Made by a program: the position numbers and the translations under genes. DNA of 21,658 bases from a virus. Taxonomy: Duplodnaviria > Heunggongvirae > Uroviricota > Caudoviricetes. Shown piece by piece: positions 728-17,773 of the stretch. The DNA lies in IMG/VR virus record IMGVR_UViG_3300045988_119128, positions 1 to 21,658 of that record; one strand, 5' to 3'. The notes beneath the pieces are model-generated. The model searched no databases and was not told where the DNA came from. It was given only the letters and a program-made list of their open reading frames with translations. The first letter of the stretch is position 1. Each line of letters opens with the position of its first letter.

Positions 728-1258
728 TTATCCGGGATAAACAGTAATAACATCACCATCACAGACCACACCGCCTGTATACAGATAGCCGGGAATGTCC
801 TGGATAATGTTCAGACCGATAAGGTGGCGACTTGCGGGTTTGGCATCGGCAATCAGCCGTTCCATTTCCAGATACATCTCCTCCGTGATGCCGCTTTCCA
901 GTACGCCGATATCAAGGCGGAAGGTTCCGGGCGGGTCGTTTGTCTCCCACCATTCCTTTACGTTAATTAGATAGCCTAGCGGCTCCACCACACGCCGGAT
1001 TGCACCTATAGTGCCTTTATGACAGTGGATGAAATACGCATCGCGGATAACGGCGCGTTTTGTCGCTTCCGGCCACTTTTCATCCCATCTGTCGACCGAA
1101 AACGCCCACGCCAGCCACGGCAGCAGATTTGCCGGGCAGGTGTCCGGGTTCCACAGCTCACGAATACTGACCGGTGTTTTTTCAATTTCCGCACAGGCTT
1201 TTGCGGCGGCGACCTCAAGCGGTGATGAGCCGGTCGGCAGCAGTCGCGAATCACTCAT
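728..1258 (-). CDS. I: Baseplate/tail fibre assembly protein gpI
   Basis: 176 aa ORF, same length as P2 gpI, starting MSDSRLLPTGSSPLEVAAAKA; synteny J-I-H. Confidence 0.9.
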   Translation of the reverse strand: MSDSRLLPTGSSPLEVAAAKACAEIEKTPVSIRELWNPDTCPANLLPWLAWAFSVDRWDEKWPEATKRAVIRDAYFIHCHKGTIGAIRRVVEPLGYLINVKEWWETNDPPGTFRLDIGVLESGITEEMYLEMERLIADAKPASRHLIGLNIIQDIPGYLYTGGVVCDGDVITVYPG

Positions 1259-2163: not shown

Positions 2164-2511
2164 TCAACTCACAGGGATGGTTAACGAAAGTGGCTGGCCG
2201 GTGTCGTTGTGCTGGCCGGTTAAGGTGACCGTCATTCGCCCGTCAAAACTGCGCTCAGTGGTGACGGATGACAGGGTGACGCGGGGTTCCCATTTCAGCA
2301 CCGCCATGTAACAGGCGACCTTAATCTGCAACTCAAGCGCCGGGGTCTGCGGCTGGTCAATCATTGACGCCAGCAACGAGCCGTAATCACGACGCATCAC
2401 CCGCGAGCCGACCGGTGTGCGCAGGATATCGCCGATACTCTGGCTGATATGCTCAAGGTCAGTGACAGTCAGGCCATCACTGCAATTCATTCCGAGATAA
2501 CGCGCTGTCAT
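2164..2511 (-). CDS. W: Baseplate protein gpW
   Basis: 115 aa ORF, same length as P2 gpW; 4-nt overlap with the V stop. Confidence 0.9.
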   Translation of the reverse strand: MTARYLGMNCSDGLTVTDLEHISQSIGDILRTPVGSRVMRRDYGSLLASMIDQPQTPALELQIKVACYMAVLKWEPRVTLSSVTTERSFDGRMTVTLTGQHNDTGQPLSLTIPVS

Positions 2512-3143
2512 AGAGGGCTCCCGGTTGTGCCGCCGCTGTCGCCGGGGTGTTTATGGGTATGCAGTACCTTACCGTTTGATGAGAGTTCACCGCCGGTGTG
2601 TTCAATGTTGCCGCGCATCGTCCCGCCCTTCTGCACTTCCAGCGTGCCGGTAATCAGCCTGTTGGTGCAAACCACCTCCGGTGTGTCCAGGGTGACGCGG
2701 GTTGATGCTTTCACCATGACCACCGGCACCGTGGCAGTAACAGAATCAGAAGCCGTCACGCTGGCCGTTTTAATTCCGCTTACCGTGAGTGCACTGGTTT
2801 CGGGTTCATACTCAATCACCGCCCCGTCAGGGAAACGGATATGCAGGGCATCCGCCGACGCAGACGGCGCGGGGTTATCGCCGGAATAAATCCCCGGCAG
2901 AACGAACGCCGTGTCGAGTTCACCGCCCACAGCCAGAATCAGCACCTGTTCCCCCACGGAAGGTGCCCACCATGTGCGCGAACGTCCGGCACGATGGGTC
3001 AGCCACTGAAGCCAGTCAGTGCACATGCCACCGGTCTGCACACGGCAGCGACCGGCTTTAAGGTTGGTTTCGACGACAAGGCCGGTACGAATCATGTTGC
3101 GCAGTGCGCGCGCGAGTTCCTGAATATTTGCGAGAGTGTTCAT
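2508..3143 (-). CDS. V: Baseplate spike/assembly protein gpV
   Basis: ORF-track frame 2508..3161 begins at a non-ATG codon. The first ATG (3143-3141) gives 211 aa starting MNTLANIQELARALRNMIRTG, matching the P2 gpV N-terminus and length. Confidence 0.88.
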   Translation of the reverse strand: MNTLANIQELARALRNMIRTGLVVETNLKAGRCRVQTGGMCTDWLQWLTHRAGRSRTWWAPSVGEQVLILAVGGELDTAFVLPGIYSGDNPAPSASADALHIRFPDGAVIEYEPETSALTVSGIKTASVTASDSVTATVPVVMVKASTRVTLDTPEVVCTNRLITGTLEVQKGGTMRGNIEHTGGELSSNGKVLHTHKHPGDSGGTTGSPL

Positions 3144-3226
3144 GCGTGTGAGATTGCACAATATATAAAAGTTATGCTATCTGGATTCATTTGTAGAACG
3201 ACCATACAACATTCGAGGAGAGCGTA

Positions 3227-4012
3227 ATGTTCAGTGATAATGTGACTAATGCGTGGTGGTTTATCTCTTTGTATCTATTTTTATTAATAGCATTAACATT
3301 TATTACCTTTGGTAAAAGTAATCTTATGAGGTTTATTGCACATCATTTCAATTTTGAGTATTCAGACAGAAAGTTAAAAATGCTCGACAAAAAATGGCGC
3401 GACATTCAACTATTTAAAATAATTAACGGAATCAATGTATCAGGCATCGAAGATGTGAGAATGATACAGCAGGGGCTGATTGATGGAAAACTAAAAACAT
3501 CGTATTTTTTTCTTACTCGCTTCTGGGGTGACATAACAAAACCACCACACATAATTAAAACAATAATTGTAATTCTGTCCAGCATTATTTATATTCTCTT
3601 CGCATGTTATATACACAACAAACAATCCGCTATAGTAAGAGATGCCATAGGCATACCATATAAAAATATGATGTACTATGTTTATAGTGACAAAGTTCTT
3701 TTATCCTTCAACAATAAAACAGTTGAATTCAATAAAACTTATAGCCTTGCCGATTGCAAGAGGCTACGAAACATATTTATAAAAGACACACTTCCTGAGA
3801 TCGCCTGCAATAAGCTCTTACGGCTAAACGAGGAGGACTCGGAATGGTTAAGTCAGGAAATTAAAGATAATAACAGCCAAAAAAAAGCATTATTAATAAT
3901 ATCCCTCATCTATTTCATTTCAGGCCTGGTTATATTTCTGTCATATACAAAATTCCTTTACGCCAATAAGAAGGTTGTAGAATACAAAGCATCAAATAAA
4001 AATCACTCATAA
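3227..4012 (+). CDS. Hypothetical membrane protein, AT-rich moron at the P2 orf30 position
   Basis: 261 aa ORF on the opposite strand to the flanking late genes, visibly AT-rich. Strong SD GAGGAG at 3215-3220, six nt before the ATG. Three hydrophobic segments (about residues 9-28, 107-127, 222-243). Lies between S and V, where P2 carries accessory orf30. Confidence 0.7.
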   Translation: MFSDNVTNAWWFISLYLFLLIALTFITFGKSNLMRFIAHHFNFEYSDRKLKMLDKKWRDIQLFKIINGINVSGIEDVRMIQQGLIDGKLKTSYFFLTRFWGDITKPPHIIKTIIVILSSIIYILFACYIHNKQSAIVRDAIGIPYKNMMYYVYSDKVLLSFNNKTVEFNKTYSLADCKRLRNIFIKDTLPEIACNKLLRLNEEDSEWLSQEIKDNNSQKKALLIISLIYFISGLVIFLSYTKFLYANKKVVEYKASNKNHS

Positions 4013-4017
4013 GCCTC

Positions 4018-4054
4018 TAAACATTGAGCGACCAGCATGGCCGCTCAATGTTTA
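4018..4054. terminator. Perfect 13-bp inverted repeat hairpin between convergent genes (orf30-like and S)
   Basis: TAAACATTGAGCG (4018-4030), 11-nt loop, CGCTCAATGTTTA (4042-4054). Starts 6 nt after the moron stop; a T-rich tract partly overlaps the 3' arm on the + strand. Confidence 0.5.
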
Positions 4055-4083
4055 ATTGCGCATCAGCCTCTGCCTGGATAAAA

Positions 4084-4536
4084 CTAACGCTCAAGGTGAG
4101 CCAGGATAATCTCTTCAATCATCTGCACATCCTCACCGGTAAAGCCGAGCAGAGGACGCGCCGGATAATCAATTTTCTTACCGTCTTTCCGGGTTTCTTC
4201 CGACAGACCGAACTGATGCACACTGGCGATTTTCGGCGACTTCCCGCCGTAAAATTCCATTGATGCCTGTTCCGGGCTGGCGCGGATATGCAAAAAACGA
4301 CTGGTAATAAGTTTCGCAAACATTTTTCGCTTAACGCGACCGGTCTTTTTTCTGGCGCTCTGCTGCTGACGTGGCGCGTAGGGGGTGCCGTCCGGGGCTT
4401 TCTGTGCCATCACCCGACGCTGCTGACTCTGACGCAGACGTTTCGCCAGTTCGGCGCTCAGTCGCCGACGCCCTGACGGTGACAGCGATTCAATCAGCCC
4501 GGTCAGCCGGTCTTCAAAACGCTTAAACTCATTCAT
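4084..4536 (-). CDS. S: Tail completion protein gpS
   Basis: 150 aa ORF starting MNEFKRFEDRLTGLIESL, same length as P2 gpS; synteny R-S. Confidence 0.9.
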   Translation of the reverse strand: MNEFKRFEDRLTGLIESLSPSGRRRLSAELAKRLRQSQQRRVMAQKAPDGTPYAPRQQQSARKKTGRVKRKMFAKLITSRFLHIRASPEQASMEFYGGKSPKIASVHQFGLSEETRKDGKKIDYPARPLLGFTGEDVQMIEEIILAHLER

Positions 4537-4996
4537 CCCACTTACTCACCAGTTCGCCATTGATATAAAGCTCCATCGGGCGGGTGACCGGCTCCGGCGG
4601 CGGGGGTTCCGGGATATTCTTCACATGCAGCGCGCCGCCCACCTCACTGACCAGCGTGCGCTCGGTCAGCATCAGGCTGATGCTGATATCAAAGCTGCTG
4701 TCATTGTTGATGTCCGCATAAAACGTGAAGCCCTTTTTCTGGCCTTCGTCGGTGGTCATGATGTCGGGCTGATTTTCCCGCAGCCACGCCAGCACCGGCA
4801 CGATGAGCAGGTCAAAATCACCGGTAAAGTCGGTCACAATGACATTGAGCGTGTAACGCTTTTCAAATGACAGCGACGTCGCCAGTGTGGAGGCAATACT
4901 TCCGTTATCCACGAATATCCGCAACATCTCGGGACTGGTTTTCAGCACCGTGACGGCATCAGTCAGCGCCCTGCGCAGGCTGTCGGGTTTGAGCAT
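4529..4996 (-). CDS. R: Tail completion protein gpR
   Basis: 155 aa ORF, same length as P2 gpR; overlaps S start. Confidence 0.9.
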   Translation of the reverse strand: MLKPDSLRRALTDAVTVLKTSPEMLRIFVDNGSIASTLATSLSFEKRYTLNVIVTDFTGDFDLLIVPVLAWLRENQPDIMTTDEGQKKGFTFYADINNDSSFDISISLMLTERTLVSEVGGALHVKNIPEPPPPEPVTRPMELYINGELVSKWDE

Positions 4997-5529: not shown

Positions 5530-5942
5530 GGTTCCCGCCCCTCAAAACGCTGACGGCAGGCCGTACGTATCAGCCGGAAGAACACCGACGCCACGAGATA
5601 AATCAGCGCGGTAAAAATCCACCCGGCAGCGACCAGCGAGATAAACGTCGCCACCATCACCACCAGAGCCACCGCCCGTCTGCGCCACGGCACCGGCTGC
5701 AAAAACAGCGACGTGACAATCTTCACGGCCAGCGATTCCGGCGGAAGCTCCCGCCCGTAGCGTTCCAGCACATACTCAGTGGCATACACGCCGACACCAC
5801 CGGCAACCACACAGATAACCGTCGCCAGAATCGCCCAGGCGGCGACAAAATTGACGGCCACGCTCTGCGGGTAAATCAGGGACAGTGCCAGCATCAGCGC
5901 CAGCGACACGTTCAGCATCAGTGAAAGGGATAATTTCTTCAT
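5517..5942 (-). CDS. lysA: Lysis timing membrane protein LysA
   Basis: 141 aa multi-TM ORF between endolysin K and lysB; same length and position as P2 LysA. Confidence 0.85.
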   Translation of the reverse strand: MKKLSLSLMLNVSLALMLALSLIYPQSVAVNFVAAWAILATVICVVAGGVGVYATEYVLERYGRELPPESLAVKIVTSLFLQPVPWRRRAVALVVMVATFISLVAAGWIFTALIYLVASVFFRLIRTACRQRFEGREPCQS

Positions 5943-5956
5943 GGTGTTTACTCCGT

Positions 5957-6454
5957 TTAAGCCGGTACACCGCCGGCGGTACGCCAGACGGTGACCAGTT
6001 TTTCCAGTGAATGCTCACGCTGACCGTAACCGGCACCCGGCAGGGACGCCCAGATATTGCGACAGCGTGAAATGGCTCGCTCAATGCGTCCCGCCCGGAT
6101 GTCATCCAGTGCACCGCGTTCGCGGATCAACTGAATGGCAAGTCTGTCCTGTGACAACGGACTGAAATCCGGCAGGGCAAGCTGTTTGCGGTAATGCGGC
6201 CAGAACAGGTAAAGCTGCTGATAGCGACCGGAGGCCGTGGATTTTTCACCGCGACGGTTAAACACCTTCGCCGGTCGGCCATGTGCGAACGGGTGGTCAC
6301 TGTAGTCGGTGAAAATTTCCGGCTTCCCGTCCAGTCCGGTGACTATCACGTCATAGCCCCGGTTTTTCGTCAGCGGATGGTTTGCCGTCCCTTCGGACAC
6401 GGCCAGCATGTCGAGAAAGGCGGCGATATTCTGATGCGTGTTAATAACCGGCAT
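5957..6454 (-). CDS. K: Endolysin gpK (lysozyme-like)
   Basis: 165 aa ORF starting MPVINTHQNIAAFLDMLAVSEGT, same length as P2 gpK; directly downstream of the holin. Confidence 0.9.
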   Translation of the reverse strand: MPVINTHQNIAAFLDMLAVSEGTANHPLTKNRGYDVIVTGLDGKPEIFTDYSDHPFAHGRPAKVFNRRGEKSTASGRYQQLYLFWPHYRKQLALPDFSPLSQDRLAIQLIRERGALDDIRAGRIERAISRCRNIWASLPGAGYGQREHSLEKLVTVWRTAGGVPA

Positions 6455-6735
6455 TACGGTTTCCCCCTGCCCTTAAAGCGGCGCTGGATGGCAATCTCAA
6501 TCACCTGATAACCGGCGATACCCAGCATGGAGCCGATACCGCACACCGCAGGCAGTGACAGGTCAGGAAACTGCACCAGAACAACACCGGCAACCATCGA
6601 GACAAAACCACCAAGCAACATGCGCCCGATAAACAGACGCGGGGTGATGGGTTCACCACCGGCAAGCACCTTGCCGACAACAATCAGCACCCCAATCATG
6701 AAAAGCGACAGGACGCTTTTTTCTTCTGCTGTCAT
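6454..6735 (-). CDS. Y: Holin gpY
   Basis: 93 aa ORF with hydrophobic TM segments; same length and position as P2 gpY. Confidence 0.85.
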   Translation of the reverse strand: MTAEEKSVLSLFMIGVLIVVGKVLAGGEPITPRLFIGRMLLGGFVSMVAGVVLVQFPDLSLPAVCGIGSMLGIAGYQVIEIAIQRRFKGRGKP

Positions 6736-6738
6736 GCG

Positions 6739-6942
6739 TTACTCCCACAGATTGACAGTTTCAGCCACGGGCGCGGTCTGAACGTCGGGCAGTTCGACGG
6801 CGGTGCCGTGTGGCAGCACCGCGCCCAGTTCAGCCAGTCCCGGATTTGCGGCGAGCACGGCCTCGACCACGCCCTCAGTGCGCCCGTAATACCGGACACA
6901 AATGGCGTCGAGCGTGTCGCCCTGTAGCGCAAAGGTCTTCAT
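6739..6942 (-). CDS. X: Tail protein gpX
   Basis: Internal ATG at 6942-6940 gives 67 aa starting MKTFALQGDTLDAICVRYYGR, matching P2 gpX length and N-terminus. Its start overlaps the L stop. Confidence 0.85.
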   Translation of the reverse strand: MKTFALQGDTLDAICVRYYGRTEGVVEAVLAANPGLAELGAVLPHGTAVELPDVQTAPVAETVNLWE

Positions 6943-7451
6943 CAGATTTGACTCACGATGCAGCGCGGCTTGTCCTGGATGCGCGCCACTGCCCAGCGCA
7001 TATCCCGCCACAGCTCATCAATGGTGCTGTCAATGCTGTCGGCCTTCTTGTCGCCTTTCGCACTGGCATCCACGCCGCGATAACGCTCATAAAGCGACGC
7101 GGTCGCCATCGCACACACGGCGCGCTCGTAGTAAAAAACTTTGATACTTTCACCGTCGATGTCGTCCGCCGGAACGTCCGCCAGACGCGTAAAACCGGCG
7201 GCAATTTTCTGTTCGCGGTACTCGTACAGCTCCGCATTTGTTTCCGCCATGCCTGACTTGATGGCCTCACGCAGACGGGCGGGGGCGACGGTCTGCTCAA
7301 GGCGCATACGTTCCCGGACGCGCTTCGGGTCGATATCTGGAAAAAAGAACGTGTTTTTAATCACCGGCTCGTCGCCTGCCGGTTGCGGGATGACCACCGT
7401 ACCCTCACCGGACACGGGAGCCTCCTTTCGCGGAATAATCAGCGTCATCAT
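6942..7451 (-). CDS. L: Head completion/stabilisation protein gpL
   Basis: Tandem ATG ATG at 7451-7446 gives 169 aa starting MMTLIIPRKEAPVSGEG, matching P2 gpL. The ORF-track frame is extended upstream of this start. Confidence 0.88.
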   Translation of the reverse strand: MMTLIIPRKEAPVSGEGTVVIPQPAGDEPVIKNTFFFPDIDPKRVRERMRLEQTVAPARLREAIKSGMAETNAELYEYREQKIAAGFTRLADVPADDIDGESIKVFYYERAVCAMATASLYERYRGVDASAKGDKKADSIDSTIDELWRDMRWAVARIQDKPRCIVSQI

Positions 7452-7550
7452 GACTACCTCTGAAAAGTCGGGCGGTGGACGCCGGTGCAGTGTCAGGTGA
7501 TTCACCCTCACTGACCGGCGTGCCGCCCTGGCGCGGGGCGCATTCGGTTG

Positions 7551-8294
7551 TTAACTGGCTTTCTTTTTCGGGCGTCCACGTTTTGCCGGTGTCACGCTCC
7601 GGGTCTTACGCGGGGTACGGGTGGCCGCTTTTGGCTGCGGCTCCGGCTTCGGTTTCAGCTCCCGCTCCAGTCGTTCAATCTCTTTTTTGACGCCTGCCTG
7701 ACAGTCGAGCTGTGTCGCACGTTGCAGATGCGCCAGCGCCCCTGCGGCATCACCAGCGTCACGCAGAAACAGACCGGTGATTTTGTGCAGCTTTGCGCGC
7801 ACTTCATCAGGCATGTCAGCCGTGGCGGTCAGTTCAAGGGTCTCCGTCAGCAGGCGGGTATCCACAGACTCACCGGCAGCGTGAGCGCGCATGGCCGCAA
7901 GCGCGACCTCCTCGGTGAACATGTACGGCGGGGTACGGCGGTGTTTACCCGGCATGGTCAGACCGTACTTCAGGGCATAACGGGCAATCTCCAGCGCACC
8001 GGCAATATCGCCGGTATCCAGACGCCACAGCATGACCGTCATCAGAATGTCATCCTGTGCACCTTTGCCCTGCTCCAGCACGCCGTTCACCCACGGCAAC
8101 CAGAACGGCAGCAGTTCGCGTTTTTTCGCGGCCTTCAGCTCTTTTGAATAAATCGCTTTCAGTGTGCGCTGGTCTGCGGCGAGCTTAACCAGCATCTGCT
8201 CATAGACAGTTGCATGTCGCAGCGGGGCGGCGTCCCGCTGCGCGGTCATCGCTGCCGAGACCCGCATCATGTGGCGCTGTGCGGGACTCGTCAT
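7551..8294 (-). CDS. M: Terminase small (endonuclease) subunit gpM
   Basis: 247 aa ORF, same length as P2 gpM, with a basic lysine/arginine-rich C-terminus; synteny N-M-L. Confidence 0.9.
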   Translation of the reverse strand: MTSPAQRHMMRVSAAMTAQRDAAPLRHATVYEQMLVKLAADQRTLKAIYSKELKAAKKRELLPFWLPWVNGVLEQGKGAQDDILMTVMLWRLDTGDIAGALEIARYALKYGLTMPGKHRRTPPYMFTEEVALAAMRAHAAGESVDTRLLTETLELTATADMPDEVRAKLHKITGLFLRDAGDAAGALAHLQRATQLDCQAGVKKEIERLERELKPKPEPQPKAATRTPRKTRSVTPAKRGRPKKKAS

Positions 8295-8297
8295 CGG

Positions 8298-9371
8298 TTA
8301 CGCTCCCGGCTCTGCGGTCACTTTAGTCGGTGTGGAGAAGTCACCGACCTTAATTTTTTCCACCAGACAACCGGCGGCGTAGTCTTCCACCACGTAATCA
8401 ATGTTCATTGACTCGTAGTTCTCCACGCGGTCGAGTTTCGGGTTTTCCACAATCACGCGGCGATGGCTGTCATCCATGTAGTAGATGGACAGGTTTTCCA
8501 GCTTCGTGATGAGCATCGCATCCGCCGGGAAGTACGGGACGCGTACCGCCGGCAGGTTACCGATGCGTTTCTGGCTGATGATGACGTCAGCGGCCAGCAT
8601 TTCGCTGTTGTCCTGCTCCTTGTTAACGATGGGGAAATACTTGTCCGCCAGTAGCTGACGCCCCACAATCACCACAAGGTCAGGGTCTTCCTGATACCAC
8701 GGTTCAATCAGGTTGTTGGTCGCATCCATCACCAGTGCGTCGAGGCTTACATAATCACCGCCCTTACCCACGCGGATAACCTCAGAGGTGGTGTGCCCTT
8801 CCTCGTCAGTGACCTTGCTCATCACGCGCGCCGGGGCTTCATTGCGGTATTTCTGCAGCCAGCCGACCGCCACATCCTGCAGCATCGGATTGCTGCTGCG
8901 GTCAGAGGTTTCGGCACGCCTCACGCCGTTAAAACCGGCCATGATTAAATCAAGGGACTGGCGTTTGATAATGGCGTTACGGACACGGAGCTGGAAATCC
9001 TGATAACGCGCCCACAGGTCCAGCGTTTTGTAGCGGATATAAAAATCGAAGTTAATCTGGTCGCATTCGTACTTGTTTGACGCCAGCTTCGAGAAGTCCT
9101 TCGGCTGACGCTCGGTGCCACCGGCGGTGTCTGTGGTGCTGGCGATGGAGCCGGTGACACCAATACCAATTTTTTCCCCTTTCATTTCGCTGACCGGCAC
9201 AATGTTGATGCGGGTCAGAAAGTCAGAGGACTCCTGCATGGTGTTCATCAGGGTCTGGGTGACCGACGGTTCAACGGTGAATTTTTTCGACACATCACCG
9301 GCGTCGATGCCGTTCAGTTCGGCAACACGGGACAGGTAGGCATTAAATTTAAAGCGGGTTTCCTGGCGCAT
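8298..9371 (-). CDS. N: Major capsid protein gpN
   Basis: 357 aa ORF, same length as P2 gpN; follows scaffold O. Confidence 0.93.
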   Translation of the reverse strand: MRQETRFKFNAYLSRVAELNGIDAGDVSKKFTVEPSVTQTLMNTMQESSDFLTRINIVPVSEMKGEKIGIGVTGSIASTTDTAGGTERQPKDFSKLASNKYECDQINFDFYIRYKTLDLWARYQDFQLRVRNAIIKRQSLDLIMAGFNGVRRAETSDRSSNPMLQDVAVGWLQKYRNEAPARVMSKVTDEEGHTTSEVIRVGKGGDYVSLDALVMDATNNLIEPWYQEDPDLVVIVGRQLLADKYFPIVNKEQDNSEMLAADVIISQKRIGNLPAVRVPYFPADAMLITKLENLSIYYMDDSHRRVIVENPKLDRVENYESMNIDYVVEDYAAGCLVEKIKVGDFSTPTKVTAEPGA

Positions 9372-9429
9372 AGTTTTTCCTGAAATTAAGGGTTAATCGT
9401 GAAGGTTTTCCCGGACTGACTGACGCCGG

Positions 9430-10284
9430 TCAGCAGTTCGTCATCAGGGCGTCACCGCCACCACCGGTGGCCTTGCTGCGGCGCTGCTGGGTCAGACTTT
9501 CGGTGTGGTCGAGACTGTTTTTCAGGCGGGTGAATGCCTGGCTGGTTTCATCCGCCCTGTCAGTCACATCCTGCTTAAGTGCGGAAAAAGCGGTTTCCAT
9601 CTCAGCGAGGCGCTGCTCAGTGGCGCTCAGTTTTTCCTGCACATGTTCAGCAACAGCGGTCACCGCTTCATGCACGTCATTCAGACGGGCGTCATCGCTG
9701 GCCTGTTTGCGGCCAAAAATGGACTTCACCTTTTCGGTCAGGGCGGTGAACACGGTTTCAGGCAGGTCTTCAAATTCCAGCTCAACGGGCGTTGCCACTG
9801 AAATCAGGTTTTCAGGGCTTAATTTGAAGCGGTTCAGGGGGTTGTGTTTTGCCGTGCGGCAGAATTCCAGGTATTCCGTGCCGAGGCTTGCCGGGTCATC
9901 GGTGACGGCCAGACCCACCAGATAACATTTGCCTGTATTGGCAAAGTTCGGCTGAATTTCCATTGAGGTATAGACCTTCTGCGCGGCCTTGTTCATCGCG
10001 ATAAGGTCATCGGTCGGGGTGATTTTCGCAAACAGCGCCCATTTGCCTTTCAGCGCCGAATCATCGTCAATCTTTTCGGCCTTCAGTTCGACCACATCGC
10101 CATAACGCTTAAAAATACCGTCAGGCAGGACGCCGCGCAGATGTTCCAGGTTAATGCGGCAACCATAGACTCGCGGGTCAAAGGTTTCGGCCATTTCCTG
10201 AATATCCTGCGCACTGATGACACGCCCGTCACAGGTGTCACCCTCAACGCCGATACGAAAGAATTTTGAGACTTTTTTTGCCAT
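9430..10284 (-). CDS. O: Capsid scaffolding protein gpO
   Basis: ATG at 10284-10282 gives 284 aa starting MAKKVSKFFRIGVEGDTCDGRV, matching P2 gpO; AGGA Shine-Dalgarno upstream. ORF-track frame is extended upstream. Confidence 0.88.
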   Translation of the reverse strand: MAKKVSKFFRIGVEGDTCDGRVISAQDIQEMAETFDPRVYGCRINLEHLRGVLPDGIFKRYGDVVELKAEKIDDDSALKGKWALFAKITPTDDLIAMNKAAQKVYTSMEIQPNFANTGKCYLVGLAVTDDPASLGTEYLEFCRTAKHNPLNRFKLSPENLISVATPVELEFEDLPETVFTALTEKVKSIFGRKQASDDARLNDVHEAVTAVAEHVQEKLSATEQRLAEMETAFSALKQDVTDRADETSQAFTRLKNSLDHTESLTQQRRSKATGGGGDALMTNC

Positions 10285-13451: not shown

Positions 13452-13667
13452 CGCCCGCTTCGTGGGGCGATTTTAATGCGGTTGCATGACAAATAGAAAT
13501 GCATGCTAGCCTTTACATAAGGACTACTTAGCAACACTTATATCCTCATGCAAATTCATGCAGGTTCTACATGTAATACTTTGTCTAGACAATATAAAAC
13601 TTGCACATGTTACAAAAGAAGCCTCTAAAAAAAGCAATGAGGATTCAGCCTATCAAATAACAAAATA

Positions 13668-14699
13668 TCACAAGAACTCAATTACAAATTCATTCTCTTG
13701 ATACTTACGTCCTAACATAACTTCATGTGCCGTTTCATAATTTGGCTTAACTTTTAAAGATGCATTATTATGTTTCAACAAAGTTTTAGCCCTGTACATT
13801 CCTATTCCGCTTCCCGCACGATTACTCTTTTTAGCCATAACACCAGAGTACCCCTCAATAAAGATCTTATCGATCTCATCAGGATTAATTACAAGGCTAA
13901 CCATCTTAAATGAAATAGATAATTTTTTTGTCTCTGTGTTTTTATCGAAACAAATCACCAACCTCGAATCAGGCTTAATATATTTAACAGAGTTTTCAAT
14001 TAAATGATACACAGCAACCTGAAAAGTCTCATAATCAATATATACCGTATCATTAGATTCAGCCACTTCAACACGAATTCCCTTATCCGTAAACTCAGGG
14101 AAAAAGACATACACTATATTCATTAAAACTCGATGAATACTATGATTTCTCAATGCTATTTTTGGATGCTCACTCAATAAAGCATTATAAACATCTATCT
14201 CAGCCTTCATCTTGAGTGTATTTTTTGCAATATTAACTAATGACAATCCTGCATCATATGGGTCTTCAGCCACCTGTTCTTTTATTCTATTTTTCCAACC
14301 CGCTCGCTTATCCTGCATAACTTCTTGAGGGATAATAGAGTAAACCTCTTGGATAATATGACCATTGAGAGTAACCAAGTTATGAATCAATCGATTAACA
14401 TGTTGCTTTGCCTCTTCCTTAGCCTTACGGTGAGCTTCTTGCACGGAAGGAATACCGTCAAGCAACATCTCAGCTTTAGCTCGTGCAACTTTCGAACTCT
14501 TAAGCATTGCATCATTTGCTGATATTAATGTTACAACTCCAAATTGATTGGATACTCTTACAGCTCTATAGGCAACTTTATTATATGAGAACTTAACTGA
14601 CTCTGCCTTCAGAGAGTTGAAGTGCTCTAAAAGCTCCCTCTCAATATTATTGACTAACAAACAACCATCTGTCGTTTCCAACTTATAATAAAAAGACAT
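13668..14699 (-). CDS. Histidine-kinase-like ATPase (GHKL family), soluble; cargo gene 2 of island
   Basis: 343 aa AT-rich ORF with ATG at 14699-14697, 12 nt after the upstream gene stop. Motifs by eye: candidate H-box LIHNLVTLNGH, N-box-like VYHLIENSVKY, G2-like GSGIGMY; no clean DxGxG G1 box. No TM segment. Confidence 0.65.
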   Translation of the reverse strand: MSFYYKLETTDGCLLVNNIERELLEHFNSLKAESVKFSYNKVAYRAVRVSNQFGVVTLISANDAMLKSSKVARAKAEMLLDGIPSVQEAHRKAKEEAKQHVNRLIHNLVTLNGHIIQEVYSIIPQEVMQDKRAGWKNRIKEQVAEDPYDAGLSLVNIAKNTLKMKAEIDVYNALLSEHPKIALRNHSIHRVLMNIVYVFFPEFTDKGIRVEVAESNDTVYIDYETFQVAVYHLIENSVKYIKPDSRLVICFDKNTETKKLSISFKMVSLVINPDEIDKIFIEGYSGVMAKKSNRAGSGIGMYRAKTLLKHNNASLKVKPNYETAHEVMLGRKYQENEFVIEFL

Positions 14700-14711
14700 T
14701 TTAAAGCACCA

Positions 14712-15329
14712 TCAAGCAAAACTTTCTACAATTGTCTGGAACTGATAAGGATCTGCATCCTTTGGTAAAAAATCGTCTACCTCTCGAAGAGCTTTATGGA
14801 ATCTATCACCTGTTTGCTCTGCGGAGTAGATAATGATTTTCTTTTCTGGATATTTTGTTTTCAAAGCGAGAGCCAAGCCCAACCCTTCTTCGTTAGGTGT
14901 AATTTCAAGCCCAACCCCTTGTATATCAACAAAGATTATCTTAGCTTCCCTTATTTCGACTTGATCAATACTATCTGCATCCTTAATTAGCTTCGTATGC
15001 ACCCAACCGGCCTTTTGTAAAATCTTAACTACTTTAAATCTCACTTCATCATCAATAAAAAGTATTTTTGTAGTGTTTTTTTTATAATCCAGATCTTTTT
15101 TATCATCCACCATGGCATCATCCTTCTTAGAAGAGTCTAAGTTACCATTATAGATGTTCAAATTGACATTTTGTTCATTTGTAATCGGTTTGGAGTCCTG
15201 AACAACAGCCTGTGTTTGGCCTGAAAAGAACTTTTTCCACACGACACTCCCAAGCCACCCAACAATAGTTACACCAACACCACCAAAAGCCCAGTTGATT
15301 AAAGGATGAGAAGACGGGTCGAAATCCAT
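14712..15329 (-). CDS. Membrane-anchored receiver-domain (REC) protein without DNA-binding output; cargo gene 1 of island
   Basis: ATG at 15329-15327 with GAGG Shine-Dalgarno 6 nt upstream gives 205 aa (MDFDPSS...); the ORF-track start at 15386 is a TTG. One N-terminal TM helix (INWAFGGVGVTIVGWLGSVVW), a charged linker, then a CheY-like receiver: KILFIDDE, IIFVDIQG (candidate phosphoacceptor Asp), IIIYSA, LPKD. Confidence 0.7.
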   Translation of the reverse strand: MDFDPSSHPLINWAFGGVGVTIVGWLGSVVWKKFFSGQTQAVVQDSKPITNEQNVNLNIYNGNLDSSKKDDAMVDDKKDLDYKKNTTKILFIDDEVRFKVVKILQKAGWVHTKLIKDADSIDQVEIREAKIIFVDIQGVGLEITPNEEGLGLALALKTKYPEKKIIIYSAEQTGDRFHKALREVDDFLPKDADPYQFQTIVESFA

Positions 15330-15357
15330 GATAACCTCAATAAAATAAGAAAATTCT

Positions 15358-15386
15358 ACTATAAACAAAATTCTTAATTCGATCAA
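15358..15386 (-). promoter_or_regulatory. Candidate sigma70 promoter for the island operon
   Basis: On the minus strand: -35 TTGATC (15386-15381), 17-bp spacer, -10 TATAGT (15363-15358), about 30 nt upstream of the REC-gene ATG, in the AT-rich gap after the A stop. Confidence 0.35.
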
Positions 15387-15496
15387 TAGCTTAAAAAATC
15401 GACACCCGATGTGGTTGGTAGGCTATATGCTGTAGAAGTAGACAATTTCGTTCATCAGTTACTAAAAAACCTCAAACGATAGTAGTTAAGCCCCAA

Positions 15497-17773
15497 TTAA
15501 TAAAATGTAGTGAATCCACGAAACTCATTTTCAGATGAGTACACAGCTTTATAATTACCATATGAAATCGTGGCCCCGCGCGCCAGCGCCTCAAGCTCCC
15601 ATCGCTGCGGCCTGATACCGTTCTGAGCAAGGTCAACGCGGATACGAGTAATTTGCAATCGTTCCGACCGGGTCAGTCTGGCCGACGGTGCTATTTCATG
15701 TGGTTTTAACGGGCTTCCGTTTCTTTGCTGACGACTTGGCGTTCTCAGCCCGTGTTTTAATGCGCCCCTGAGCGTCCTCACGACCTCCGGGTCATTCCAT
15801 TCGATAACACCGTCATCAACCAGATTTAGCACTGCTGCGGCGTGCTCAGAAGGTGTGGGAGCCAGTAACGAAGGATCACCACCGGTGAGCTTTCCACAGT
15901 TATTGACAGGACTCCGAGGCGCGGCGATGCCGCTTTTTAAAGTCAAAGGCTCCACGACCGGAACTTTCGGCACAATGCGCCAGTCCGTCGTTCTGGTGAT
16001 ATGAATATGACGCGCGCCGAGATGCGGCGCGTAAATGCCGACCACTCTCTCGACTTCTTCCTCGTACTCGTTAACTTCATCCGACGGGCTACGGGCGACT
16101 CTGACAGTCTGGCAATCGCGCGGAACATTTGCCCCACCCTGCGCACTGATATACAACGCAAAATCGCCACTGTCTGCGGCAGCGCGTGCAGCCTCGACGC
16201 GTTCGTCAAACTCATCAGCAATGCTGACGCCGCGAGGCAATTTGCGTAGTTCACGGTAAGCCCCCATTGTCGGCAGACCAACCGTTTTAAATTGCGGGAT
16301 GCGCCACGTTGACGCCCATGCAGTAACAGCCGCGGCAGTATCTTTCAGCGGTCTGCCGGTATCGTTATCGAGCTGCCCATCCAGTGCATAGCCGTCGATA
16401 TTTTTTGAGATGTATTTCGCGATATACCCCGCAGCACCGCCCCGGTTAAGATGTTTTGCCTGAAAACGGTTTCGCGCGGCTCCTCTTTCGTCGCCATCCT
16501 CTTTGAGCGCATAGCGACGCATGATTTCGATAATCTGGTTACGCTGGCGTGGATTACAAAAAAGCATCATATGCCAGTGCGGCGTTCCGTCGTGGTGTGG
16601 CTCGACGACACGCAAACCGTAGGCCTGTAAATCATTATCCTTGAATGCCGTGCGCATCAGGCTCCAGATACGGCAGAGATAACGCTGCGCATCCTTTGGA
16701 TTAAATGCCTTATCGTTCCAGCCGTGATTAAGCTGAACGGTTTTACTTTCGCCTTTTCCGACCTGACGTGTCGGGTGATACTTTGACGGTGCGGTCAGCG
16801 TGATAAACATCCCCACATCACCCTCTGCAGCGGCGTAACGCTCAATACCGGCAATGGTGTTCATCAGCTCCATCCGGCGAATTTCAGGATTAGAAATACT
16901 GCCCATCACCTTACTGATAAGGTCGATGCGCTCGCCGGTTTCCTTATTTTCAAGGTCACACGATTTAAGAAATTCCAGATTTGCCTGGCGGCGTGCACGC
17001 ACATCACGAATGGCATGTTTACTGGCATAAGGAGAACGGTCTTTATTGACCTCCCCGACAGCAATCAGTAACGCCTCATGCCAGCGCATACGCTGGCCTT
17101 TAAGCTGATGAGTCCACCACTCATCGTTAAACAGACGGGCAATGGCAGAATATGCCTGCCTCGTGGTCATCTGCCCTTTACGGTATTTTTTCCAGTAGAG
17201 AGGGGAAATATTGAAAGCTCGTGCAGCGCCAGCAACATGACCATACAGGTGAGCCTGCGCCTCATCCGTAAACAGCGATTCTTTCTCGCCATGCGCATCC
17301 ACCCAGGCATCGCAGAGTTCCTCATACATCATGAAAAGCTGTGATGAGATACGGGCGGCAAACTTTTTCAGCTCCTTGTCATTCATTCCAGGCAAACGCG
17401 CATAATGGTCACGCTCTGCCAGAAACAGCAACGACGCGTCGGTGTTCATTTCATGGCGCTGATTCACACGCTCAATGCGCGGCCATAAACGACGCTGAAA
17501 AGTGGATGTGAGGAAATAAAACCCGTGCACCGGGCTTTTATTGCGCCGGATGTAGTCATAGCGTGAAGTAAACAGCGAGCGCAAAAAATAAGGCAGGCGG
17601 TTAATCGTGGATAAAACACCTTGCACCTGACGCATCTCGTCACGTGTAAGAGGTCTTTCGCGCCCGACAGCCTCGCGTGGCGCGTTCCATGCATAAGCAC
17701 CGGTAAACGTCTTACCGGTGCCTGCGGCAAATGCTGACGGAGGGACAAAACGCCCGGAGGCTTTAACGGCCAT
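15497..17773 (-). CDS. A: Replication initiation endonuclease gpA (rolling-circle Rep)
   Basis: ATG at 17773-17771 gives a protein starting MAVKASGRFVPPSAFAAGTG, the P2 gpA N-terminus; the ORF-track start at 17815 is a TTG. Contains HWH (PHWHMMLF) and tyrosine (AGYIAKYISK) motifs typical of rolling-circle initiators. The last ~23 codons are AT-rich and appear to differ from P2. Confidence 0.9.
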   Translation of the reverse strand: MAVKASGRFVPPSAFAAGTGKTFTGAYAWNAPREAVGRERPLTRDEMRQVQGVLSTINRLPYFLRSLFTSRYDYIRRNKSPVHGFYFLTSTFQRRLWPRIERVNQRHEMNTDASLLFLAERDHYARLPGMNDKELKKFAARISSQLFMMYEELCDAWVDAHGEKESLFTDEAQAHLYGHVAGAARAFNISPLYWKKYRKGQMTTRQAYSAIARLFNDEWWTHQLKGQRMRWHEALLIAVGEVNKDRSPYASKHAIRDVRARRQANLEFLKSCDLENKETGERIDLISKVMGSISNPEIRRMELMNTIAGIERYAAAEGDVGMFITLTAPSKYHPTRQVGKGESKTVQLNHGWNDKAFNPKDAQRYLCRIWSLMRTAFKDNDLQAYGLRVVEPHHDGTPHWHMMLFCNPRQRNQIIEIMRRYALKEDGDERGAARNRFQAKHLNRGGAAGYIAKYISKNIDGYALDGQLDNDTGRPLKDTAAAVTAWASTWRIPQFKTVGLPTMGAYRELRKLPRGVSIADEFDERVEAARAAADSGDFALYISAQGGANVPRDCQTVRVARSPSDEVNEYEEEVERVVGIYAPHLGARHIHITRTTDWRIVPKVPVVEPLTLKSGIAAPRSPVNNCGKLTGGDPSLLAPTPSEHAAAVLNLVDDGVIEWNDPEVVRTLRGALKHGLRTPSRQQRNGSPLKPHEIAPSARLTRSERLQITRIRVDLAQNGIRPQRWELEALARGATISYGNYKAVYSSENEFRGFTTFY

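Follow-up and report, generated by a model that had tools for sequence, protein, structure and literature searches.

An orthologue of bacteriophage P2 orf30 in the S-V intergenic region of a Peduovirus-type prophage: a predicted three-pass inner-membrane protein and candidate phage-exclusion moron

Introduction

HK97 gp15, P22 SieA and T4 Imm are small inner-membrane superinfection-exclusion proteins which are dispensable for the phage and act without a partner gene. The gp15 moron of HK97 is embedded among tail genes. In bacteriophage P2, the genes old, tin and fun are AT-rich and are expressed from the prophage. P2 is a textbook phage, and these three accessory genes for lysogenic conversion have been proven to be anti-phage (PMC9122126, PMC9519451). 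The slot between the tail completion gene S and the spike gene V is not named as a defence hotspot in the P2 hotspot studies consulted. These studies do not mention orf30, the gene situated in this slot in P2, and a literature search which included them returned no function or phenotype for it. A search with the protein accession of the E. coli B copy also found nothing.

The gene itself is already known from the annotation of the P2 genome in record AF063097, and finding it in another P2-like prophage is therefore expected. Its product in P2 (AAD03281.1) is named 'Uncharacterized 30.4 kDa protein in S-V intergenic region' in UniProt, and the gene is labelled 'nonessential' in GenBank. Assigning a function to orf30 would fill a gap in the map of P2. 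Here the orf30 locus of a 21,658-nucleotide stretch of viral DNA, called the window, was analysed. The frequency of the gene in E. coli, the purifying selection acting on it, its survival in decayed prophages, its distant relatives and the predicted topology of its product are new.

Results and Discussion

Identity of the gene between S and V

A sequence-only reading of the window had described an ORF of 261 aa with a strong Shine-Dalgarno sequence, inserted between S and V and transcribed against the late genes. All of this was found again (Table 1). The gene starts with ATG, ends with TAA and is the sole long ORF within the segment, and its Shine-Dalgarno sequence is retained as AAGGAG or GAGGAG in 7/7 alleles. 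The probability of 261 stop-free codons arising from base composition in DNA of 34% GC is about 2e-9. The longest stop-free run has 271 codons, whereas those of 2000 shuffled sequences averaged 70 codons and did not exceed 152.

Table 1. Features of the V-S region in positions of the window
Feature	Position	Strand	Evidence
Gene V, baseplate spike, left flank	2508..3143	-	PHROG baseplate assembly/spike families; P2 annotation (636-nt V gene)
Swapped AT-rich cassette, entire V-S intergenic segment	3144..4075	.	GC and alignment to empty-slot prophages
Late promoter pV activator-binding site	3185..3212	-	Homology to AF063097 features 10239-10266
Shine-Dalgarno GAGGAG	3215..3220	+	Read from sequence; 6 nt before ATG
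orf30 CDS, 261 aa and stop	3227..4012	+	ORF list; P2 Orf30 orthology; phrog_2407
TM1, aa 10-28	3254..3310	+	Hydropathy; helix in both AlphaFold2 models
Loop 1, aa 29-107, predicted cytoplasmic helical domain	3311..3547	+	Charge, family conservation
TM2, aa 108-131	3548..3619	+	Hydropathy; helix 109-134 in models
Loop 2, aa 132-219, predicted periplasmic domain	3620..3883	+	Models, family charge, cysteines
TM3, aa 220-241	3884..3949	+	Hydropathy scan
Hairpin between convergent orf30 and S, candidate bidirectional terminator	4018..4054	.	Arms 4018-4034 and 4038-4054
Gene S, tail completion, right flank	4084..4536	-	phrog_26, E = 6e-58; P2 annotation

The product was aligned with P2 Orf30 by BLASTP over 261/261 aa without gaps, at 84% amino acid identity (E = 7e-167). 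The S-orf30-V synteny, the opposite-strand orientation and the downstream hairpin are the same as in P2, and the upstream region with its pV activator site is near-identical. The sequence-only reading had proposed a match to the P2 orf30 slot, and this level of identity together with the same synteny allows a stronger statement, namely that the gene is almost certainly an orthologue of P2 orf30. Compared with the P2 gene it is an allelic variant in which the N-terminus and TM1 have strongly diverged. The protein is 100% identical to the alleles of Peduovirus P24A7b and E. coli DETEC-P881. At the nucleotide level, positions 2400-4700 of the window are 99.6% identical to Peduovirus P24A7b and 94.7% identical to P2 DNA. 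The TTG start at 3161 which the ORF lister gave for V is probably too long.

Family links

The sole PHROGs match of the protein is the unannotated family phrog_2407, which covers positions 1-261 of 261 (E = 6e-143). Searches against Pfam and NCBIfam gave nothing significant, no family among the PADLOC-DB v2 defence HMMs matched the protein, and a profile search over PDB sequences gave no match. Foldseek against BFVD returned nothing below E = 0.045. Foldseek against PDB listed claudin/TARP-like folds, which were rejected as meaningless (best E 0.07, TM-scores 0.15-0.2). When 25 relatives were scanned with PADLOC, only isolated weak matches of single members were seen, at chance level (E 0.007-0.02). 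The earlier description of the slot contents as generally uncharacterised agrees with these results, and none of the Pfam, NCBIfam, PADLOC, PDB and BFVD searches related the product to a protein essential for the virion or its assembly.

Profile comparisons link the Orf30 family remotely to Pfam DUF6216 (PF19723). The window protein itself did not match PF19723 even at E <= 1, and the gathering threshold was not reached. PF19723 was matched directly by 5/25 family members (best E = 9e-7). The alignment by hhalign of a profile of close Orf30 relatives with an NCBI-annotated DUF6216 protein had a probability of 93.5% (E = 2e-7) and covered TM1 and loop 1 (residues 14-103). Two relatives, P0055 and P0038, carry PF19723 and also match the family profile, and P0038 was found with a profile built from Orf30 only at E = 3e-12. 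DUF6216 proteins resemble Orf30 in length (about 250-265 aa) and in the layout of three transmembrane segments. As DUF6216 has no known function, the link brings no mechanism, and the sole paper which mentions DUF6216 is unrelated.

Boundaries and composition of the cassette

The segment given in Table 1 is what differs between P2-like phages with orf30 and those with an empty slot. On the left, the alignment to empty-slot prophages ends at the start codon of V, and on the right the similarity returns about 8 nt past the stop codon of S. Direct or inverted repeats were not found at the cassette boundaries, and no Rfam families or tRNAs were found in the window. The GC content of the segment is 34.1%, compared with 59.4% in V and 54.5% in S. 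That of orf30 alone is 32.2%, in line with the sharp AT-richness noted earlier. Presence or absence between conserved genes and a deviant GC content (32% vs 55-59%) are traits of a Hendrix-type moron. The best explanation of the feature is a horizontally acquired, AT-rich, single-gene moron cassette which has taken the place of the short sequence between S and V in a Peduovirus-type prophage.

Occupancy of the S-V slot

Among 5426 complete E. coli genomes, orf30 was detected in 464 (about 8.5%, or one in 12), including the laboratory B lineage, and the match covered at least 80% of the gene in 461 of them. A P2-type V-S region was present in 1589 E. coli genomes and carried orf30 in about 458 (about 29%). 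The other V-S regions that were sampled mostly have the empty slot, a V-S gap of 66 nt, and a few contain other ORFs. Among P2-like phage records, 20/92 carry orf30 within a full V-S region, and the partial matches listed have the 66-nt gap in place of orf30. Phage isolates, pro483 and HQ103 among them, also lack the gene, and so do about 70% of the P2-like prophages that are closely related and otherwise about 97% identical in the flanks. The accessory character suggested by the sequence-only reading is thus borne out by the many P2-like prophages with an empty 66-nt gap.

The alternative S-V cargo examined comprised a 357-aa ORF (TB354), a 246-aa R18C-type ORF (ECE313) and a 273-aa ORF of an Enterobacter prophage. 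These ORFs matched no PADLOC family and gave one chance-level Pfam match (HNH_5, E = 0.009). No plasmid copies of orf30 were found. In a rough comparison, second P2-like prophages were not rarer in orf30 carriers (2/18) than in the others (4/34), but the sampled rows are far too few to count.

Selection, retention and distant relatives

The dN/dS of orf30 is 0.45 over 7 alleles, each exactly 786 nt long. The two loops are more constrained, with 0.34 in loop 1 and 0.28 in loop 2, while values around 1 were obtained in TM1 and TM3; TM1, with about 1.2, is the most variable part among the alleles. In the neighbouring virion genes dN/dS is 0.07-0.14, so orf30 is under purifying selection which is much weaker than that on its neighbours. 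In the E. coli survey, 29/30 sampled matches were exactly 786 nt and aligned without gaps down to 86.5% nucleotide identity.

The gene was also found outside complete prophages. In E. coli B, orf30, which is locus PCK11_RS10415 with the product WP_000490543.1, is intact inside a deleted P2 remnant. In Pantoea ARC270 a relative adjoins an integrase stump, in a decayed Erwinia prophage a relative lies close to a putAbiC gene, and in Enterobacter a relative forms a solitary islet amid housekeeping genes with no phage nearby. It is strongly supported that the gene stays intact under purifying selection, decayed prophages included.

The relatives are only 17-39% identical to Orf30 and share the same layout of three transmembrane segments, the motifs and the cysteine pair. 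They are always single genes, and their GC content is 32-35% in every case, regardless of the GC content of the host. No cognate toxin or partner gene was seen beside them in the contexts examined. In a Pantoea P2/186-type prophage, the CI repressor, a yebY-like gene, the integrase and the homologue follow one another closely on one strand, and the homologue, at the end of this string, shares 8 nt with the end of the integrase gene, including its stop. A profile search of genome contigs with a narrower alignment gave only 3 loci, and the distant Pantoea-type homologue P0050 was not found in the collection of sequenced phages.

Upstream region and downstream hairpin

The late promoter pV, together with the site for its activator, takes up most of the 83 nt upstream of orf30. 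By homology to P2 the activator site is placed 14 nt upstream of the orf30 ATG, and the transcription start of the V operon (AF063097 feature 10308) maps to position 3143. This intergenic region is 98% identical among the 7 alleles, whose coding sequences have diverged. A promoter scan of the plus strand of these 83 nt (3144-3226) found no consensus sigma-70 promoter; visual inspection suggests a weak TTGCAC-N18-TATCTG. Given the GC content of 32%, silencing of orf30 by H-NS is possible.

The hairpin downstream begins 6 nt past the stop codon and has arms of 17 nt each which are 94% complementary. The folding energy is -23.3 kcal/mol (z = -5.5) on the plus strand and -33.9 kcal/mol (z = -6.2) on the minus strand. 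As the hairpin is not followed by a T-run, a simple terminator scan called it on neither strand. In P2, the homologous positions 9397-9433 carry the annotation 'putative rho-independent terminator for O operon'. This annotation concerns the opposite strand, and therefore the hairpin is not exclusive to orf30; it is probably shared by both convergent units, terminating both orf30 and the late O operon. The sequence-only reading was right about a perfect 13-bp hairpin, formed by the outer part of the arms, after the stop codon, with the correction that this hairpin is probably shared with the late O operon.

Predicted topology and structure

Three hydrophobic segments were proposed earlier, and a Kyte-Doolittle scan with 19 residues gave three, at aa ~10-28, 108-131 and 220-241, with means of 2.1-2.6. 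Together with a positive-inside bias, in which K/R near the ends of the transmembrane segments favour the loop 1 side as cytoplasmic in 23/25 members, these helices predict localisation in the inner membrane. The protein is accordingly predicted to be a three-pass inner-membrane protein with N-out/C-in topology.

Loop 1 is the best-conserved part of the family and contains the conserved motif FDxQLFRxxxGINVxxxxDA...G. It has a net charge of +6 (family average +5) and is predicted to fold into a helical domain, conserved and about 80 aa in size, on the cytoplasmic side. Loop 2 has a family mean net charge of about 0 and is predicted to form a beta-sheet domain of about 85 aa facing the periplasm. 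It was modelled as a four-stranded beta-sheet with helices (strands 141-173, helices 174-198) in two AlphaFold2 models with pLDDT of 74.6 and 79.8, the latter with a pTM of 0.63. It contains 2 cysteines on average, C194 being present in 25/25 members and C177 in 22/25, and this conserved pair probably forms a disulfide. The C-terminal tail, aa 242-261 (to position 4009), is basic with a charge of +4, and in the models a single long helix (202-260) spans TM3 and the tail.

Possible function of Orf30

The gene is probably not needed by the phage, as indicated indirectly by viable relatives which lack orf30 and by its 'nonessential' label in P2. It probably serves the lysogenic host. Its expression from the prophage is suggested indirectly by the Pantoea string of CI repressor and integrase and by the anti-phage lysogenic-conversion genes old, tin and fun of P2. 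Superinfection exclusion and lysogenic conversion, the two candidates of the sequence-only reading, are both plausible, and phage exclusion specifically is possible with some doubt. As a whole, the locus is best explained, tentatively, as an AT-rich, acquired, single-gene orf30 moron which is expressed in the lysogen and acts in phage exclusion. In its most speculative step this explanation would make Orf30 a self-contained phage-exclusion factor at the inner membrane. The periplasmic domain might interfere with genome entry of a superinfecting phage, or the periplasmic domain and the cytoplasmic one might pass an infection signal between them, with abortion of the infection as the result.

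The same evidence can be read in other ways. The retention of an optional but constrained cargo gene after prophage decay, and its presence as a solitary chromosomal islet, would also be expected if Orf30 altered the envelope physiology of the lysogen in a manner unrelated to phages. It could, for example, give immunity to a pore-forming colicin or to a contact-dependent or T6SS membrane toxin, confer stress or serum tolerance, or modulate a host membrane complex. Three passes through the inner membrane and a disulfide domain in the periplasm would fit a protein of the immunity type, and P2 hotspots also hold non-defence cargo such as cytolethal distending toxin (PMC9122126). Such a conversion is unlikely, considering that no cognate toxin or partner gene adjoins orf30 in the contexts examined, that no similarity to known immunity families was seen, and that old, tin and fun, the accessory genes of P2 which have been characterised, all act against phages. 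Another possibility is that orf30 is an accessory of the phage cycle which is dispensable in the laboratory and tunes lysis timing, membrane events or tail and baseplate assembly during lytic growth or establishment. The gene is located in the late region beside the lysis cassette and tail genes, and the strong conservation of the upstream 83 nt includes the late activator site. The N-out/C-in topology of its product, with three transmembrane segments and a C-terminal tail that is basic, is reminiscent of class I holins. These holins have three transmembrane segments in N-out/C-in orientation, about 70-110 aa and short loops, and are encoded in the late-strand lysis cassette. Identity as a class I holin was ruled out by the 261 aa of Orf30, its loops of about 80 aa, the opposite strand and the location outside Y-K-lysABC. 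A role in the phage cycle more generally is quite improbable, as orf30 runs against both late operons, has a strong hairpin between itself and the O operon, is lacking from most closely related P2-like prophages despite their near-identical flanks, and has relatives outside any phage and in a repressor-integrase string. Moreover, holins have far shorter loops than Orf30, which matched no family of holins or antiholins.

The lack of a detected promoter, the constraint which is relaxed relative to the neighbours (above all in TM1 and TM3), the failure to find known domains and the 'nonessential' label of P2 would fit a functionless passenger, a silent and slowly decaying AT-rich remnant in a tolerated site. 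A passenger is very improbable in view of the long open frame in DNA of such low GC content, the ungapped 786-nt matches in nearly all sampled genomes and their almost complete coverage of the gene. Purifying selection on the loops, and the architecture, motifs and cysteine pair kept among distant relatives, also argue against it.

The explanation by phage exclusion can be extended to the relatives. It is rather doubtful that Orf30 and its DUF6216-related relatives constitute a new family of single-gene inner-membrane anti-phage proteins acting in superinfection exclusion or abortive infection, with the S-V gap as a third, overlooked defence slot of P2-like phages. In such proteins, a disulfide-bonded domain in the periplasm, acting as sensor or blocker, would be joined to the conserved cytoplasmic domain. 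If Orf30 does act by exclusion, a compact family of membrane-based defence proteins would be gained, along with one more cargo slot to mine.

Comparison with known systems

The P2 genes old, tin and fun(Z) resemble orf30 as optional cargo in fixed P2 slots, and fun(Z), like orf30, is situated within the tail gene cluster. They differ from it in that their anti-phage phenotypes have been shown and their products are soluble, while Orf30 is a predicted integral membrane protein, and they have no sequence similarity to orf30. HK97 gp15, P22 SieA and T4 Imm differ from Orf30 in that no sequence or fold similarity was detected. To our knowledge, the known superinfection-exclusion proteins are mostly smaller than Orf30 and have no conserved cytoplasmic domain. 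By analogy, Orf30 may nevertheless be likened to these membrane superinfection-exclusion morons.

Identity and organization of the orf30 locus

The window contains a portion of a P2-like (Peduovirus) prophage whose late genes lie on the minus strand. The segment between the late tail genes V and S is 932 bp long and has a GC content of 34%; the values for V and S are 59% and 55%. At this composition an open frame of 261 codons would arise by chance with a probability of about 2e-9; the observed stop-free run was 271 codons, and all of 2000 shuffles gave runs of 152 codons or fewer. The sequence-only reading had described here an ORF of 261 aa between S and V on the opposite strand, more AT-rich than its flanks, with its own Shine-Dalgarno sequence and a perfect 13-bp hairpin past the stop codon. 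All these features were borne out, and hydropathy analysis placed its three hydrophobic segments, predicted to be transmembrane (TM), at residues ~10-28, 108-131 and 220-241. On either strand the hairpin folds far more stably than shuffled sequences do (z = -5.5 on the plus strand and -6.2 on the minus strand).

DNA identity over window positions 2400-4700 is 94.7% to bacteriophage P2 and 99.6% to Peduovirus P24A7b. The encoded protein shares 84% identity with P2 Orf30 in an ungapped alignment, and the PHROG family phrog_2407 matches it end to end. The P2 GenBank record AF063097 has the same layout, with orf30 labelled 'nonessential' and read in the direction opposite to S and V. The match to the P2 orf30 slot claimed earlier was thus exceeded, and the gene is almost certainly P2 orf30 itself and not only another occupant of the same slot. 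The claim that the content of this slot is uncharacterised also holds, the protein being labelled uncharacterised or hypothetical in UniProt and NCBI. Orf30 opposes the late operons and is probably insulated from them by the hairpin, which is best read as a terminator common to two convergent transcription units.

Coordinates of orf30, its surroundings and the compared loci
Sequence	Feature	Position	Strand	Remark
Window	Gene V (baseplate spike)	2508-3143	-	left flank of orf30 segment
Window	V-S segment	3144-4075		
Window	pV activator-binding site	3185-3212		14 nt upstream of orf30 ATG; AF063097 annotation
Window	Shine-Dalgarno GAGGAG		+	6 nt 5' of orf30 ATG
Window	orf30	3227-4012	+	261 aa, sole long ORF of the V-S segment
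Window	Hairpin	arms 4018-4034 and 4038-4054		begins 6 nt 3' of orf30 stop; outer 13 bp perfect
Window	'putative rho-independent terminator for O operon'	4018-4054		AF063097 label of the hairpin; refers to the convergent late transcript whose last gene is S
Window	Gene S (tail completion)	4084-4536	-	right flank of orf30 segment
Window	Second AT-rich island	13500-15500		
Window	ORFs of second island	13668-14699 and 14712-15386	both -	PADLOC matches
L003, strain TB354	357-aa ORF	1025-2098	opposite to late genes	S-V slot cargo
L004, ECE313	246-aa R18C-type ORF	1022-1762	late strand	S-V slot cargo (PMC6823313)
L005, empty-slot relative	Empty V-S slot	945-1010		66 nt
L006, Pantoea sp. S-LA4	P2/186-type prophage string	5759-8777	same strand	
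L015, Enterobacter prophage	273-aa ORF	7945-8766		N-terminal hydrophobic segments; adjoins orf30 homologue
L018, E. coli B-LamR (NZ_CP115179)	Defective P2 remnant	6001-7772		orf30 intact

Prevalence of orf30 and exchange of the V-S intergenic region

Among 5426 complete E. coli genomes, a P2-type V-S region was found in 1589 and orf30 in 464 (8.5%). All copies were chromosomal and no plasmid copies were found. In 461 of the 464 genomes the match covered at least 80% of the gene, with nucleotide identity of 86-100%. Sampled E. coli V-S regions without orf30 mostly had an empty gap, and a few carried unrelated ORFs. Comparison of the slot with related prophages, as had been proposed, thus recovered empty, orf30-filled and other-cargo versions, and orf30 is strongly supported as an optional foreign cargo. 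The alternative cargo ORFs of TB354, ECE313 and the Enterobacter prophage matched no PADLOC family, and their single Pfam match, to HNH_5, was at chance level (E = 0.009).

In alignment with empty-slot relatives, similarity stops on the left exactly at the V start codon and picks up on the right about 8 nt past the S stop, so that the whole stretch between V and S has been exchanged, together with the DNA serving pV, the late promoter of V. No terminal repeats were found at the cassette boundaries. The empty slot is unrelated in sequence to window 3144-3226 and has a different, GC-rich hairpin (GCCGCCGG-N6-CCGGCGGC) just 12 nt upstream of the V ATG. In the window, a mechanical ORF call places the V start at TTG 3161, and the P2 annotation places it at ATG 3143. 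This ATG has no Shine-Dalgarno sequence and in AF063097 transcription from pV is annotated to begin with the first base of V, suggesting a leaderless or near-leaderless V mRNA.

A second AT-rich island of the window (33-37% GC) occupies the classical old/tin hotspot of P2, flanked by the portal gene Q and the replication gene A. Its two ORFs match components B (E = 1e-172) and A (E = 1e-81) of the PADLOC candidate defence system PDC-M43.

Selection and predicted protein architecture

Selection was analyzed in seven orf30 alleles, from the window, P2 and five further phages, all seven of which are 786 nt long. The dN/dS of the whole gene was 0.45 (mean dN 0.074, dS 0.164), and the neighbouring genes W, V, S and R gave 0.07-0.14. 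Loop 1 (0.34), loop 2 (0.28) and the C-terminal tail (0.20) are under evident constraint; TM1 (about 1.2) and TM3 (about 1.05) are not. A real, constrained and self-contained membrane-protein gene is strongly supported. The 83 nt preceding orf30 (window 3144-3226) are 98% identical across the alleles, which fits constraint from the late promoter. Coding divergence sets in directly past the ATG (dS 0.16), and the N-terminus with TM1 is the most variable part, which could reflect relaxed constraint, diversifying selection or recombination between allele types.

An N-out/C-in topology is predicted from the charge distribution: in 23 of 25 family members, lysine and arginine residues close to the ends of the TM segments are biased towards the side of loop 1 and the C-tail. 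Mean net charge in the family is -1.6 at the N-terminus, where these residues are essentially absent, +5 in loop 1, about 0 in loop 2 and +2 in the C-terminal tail. Loop 1 (residues 29-107) is the best-conserved part, possesses the motif FDxQLFRxxxGINVxxxxDA...G and is predicted to form a small helical domain. For loop 2 (residues 132-219) the prediction is a beta-sheet of four strands with helices after it. This loop has two cysteines on average, C194 being present in all 25 members and C177 in 22; the conservation of this pair and its restriction to the predicted periplasmic loop suggest a C177-C194 disulfide. The better of two AlphaFold2 models reached a pLDDT of 79.8 and a pTM of 0.63. The proposed structure search with the Orf30 model against BFVD and PDB returned generic helical or weak claudin-like matches only, with no informative fold relative.

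The wider Orf30 family and its persistence

A word-based search for Orf30 relatives gave five clusters only. The HMMER profile search gave 44 representatives. Some 25 of these are full-length proteins of 250-270 aa, which share 17-39% identity with the window protein and keep its three-TM layout. All 25 full-length relatives matched phrog_2407 and five matched Pfam DUF6216. A profile of close relatives aligned with an annotated DUF6216 protein over TM1 and loop 1 (hhalign probability 93.5%). The window protein itself did not reach PF19723 in the Pfam search and is therefore a remote relative of DUF6216, not a member. Homology search thus gave a full-length phrog_2407 match and a remote link to a family which is itself uncharacterised.

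Every relative examined has a GC content of 32-35%, independent of host composition, and all but one are single genes. The exception, in an Enterobacter P2-like prophage, likewise lies between V and S and shares that slot with an additional membrane ORF of 273 aa. In the P2/186-type prophage of Pantoea sp. S-LA4, a 23%-identical relative ends a tight string of CI repressor, yebY-like gene and integrase, overlapping the integrase stop by 8 nt. This string lies at the integrase end of the prophage and corresponds to the lysogenic operon of 186-type phages, which is the best indirect support for expression of the Orf30 family in lysogens. In Pantoea sp. ARC270, what remains at the same chromosomal site is an integrase stump and the intact relative.

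Three family members have outlived their prophages and a fourth is a stand-alone islet; that orf30 outlasts prophage decay is strongly supported. In E. coli B, orf30 is intact (99.6% nucleotide identity to the window) in a defective P2 remnant with a truncated S fused to or abutting a portal fragment. The ARC270 homologue is intact beside a 79-aa integrase stump, the prophage being otherwise gone, and the Erwinia homologue lies inside a decayed P2-like prophage close to a putAbiC gene. The Enterobacter sp. ECC-219 homologue forms a solitary 36% GC islet amid housekeeping genes, with DsbD-like, ECF sigma factor, MCP and LacI-type regulator neighbours. In the E. coli B remnant, the old/tin slot is occupied by an ABC-three-component system.

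Possible function of Orf30 and comparison with known P2 genes

The role of orf30 probably benefits the lysogen host. Analogy with the P2 accessory genes old, tin and fun, the Pantoea repressor-integrase context and retention of the gene suggest that it would be transcribed from the prophage in the lysogen, to the advantage of the host. Speculatively, and with somewhat less than an even chance, Orf30 may be a factor that excludes phages at the level of the membrane. Its predicted anatomy is compatible with two variants: at the inner membrane, the periplasmic domain might hinder an incoming phage from delivering its genome, or the periplasmic and cytoplasmic domains might relay an infection signal from one to the other and so abort the infection. 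Orf30 had no match in the defence database, which counts against both host benefit and exclusion. Proposals on function are further weakened by the lack of a recognisable promoter in the 83-nt stretch that precedes orf30, by an AT-richness which would invite H-NS silencing and by a constraint weaker than that on virion genes. Lysogenic conversion of a non-phage kind, for example toxin immunity or envelope physiology, is an unlikely source of the benefit; a dispensable role in the phage cycle is more doubtful still, and it is highly improbable that orf30 is a functionless passenger.

The orf30 gene is an already known entity whose annotation dates back to the P2 genome record, and its occurrence in another P2-like prophage is expected. 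As early as 2010, the S-V slot was counted among three P2 regions accepting horizontally acquired genes (PMC3091744), and reviews of P2-like genomes note orf30 as an acquired ORF of unknown function. The recent P2 hotspot studies consulted deal with the old/tin and Z/fun loci and a number of other sites, with no mention of orf30. To this known gene the present analysis adds a description of its prevalence and pattern of selection, a model of topology and domains that includes a conserved periplasmic cysteine pair, the remote DUF6216 link and mobility, the family being a mobile single AT-rich gene distributed among several prophage slots and non-phage islets.
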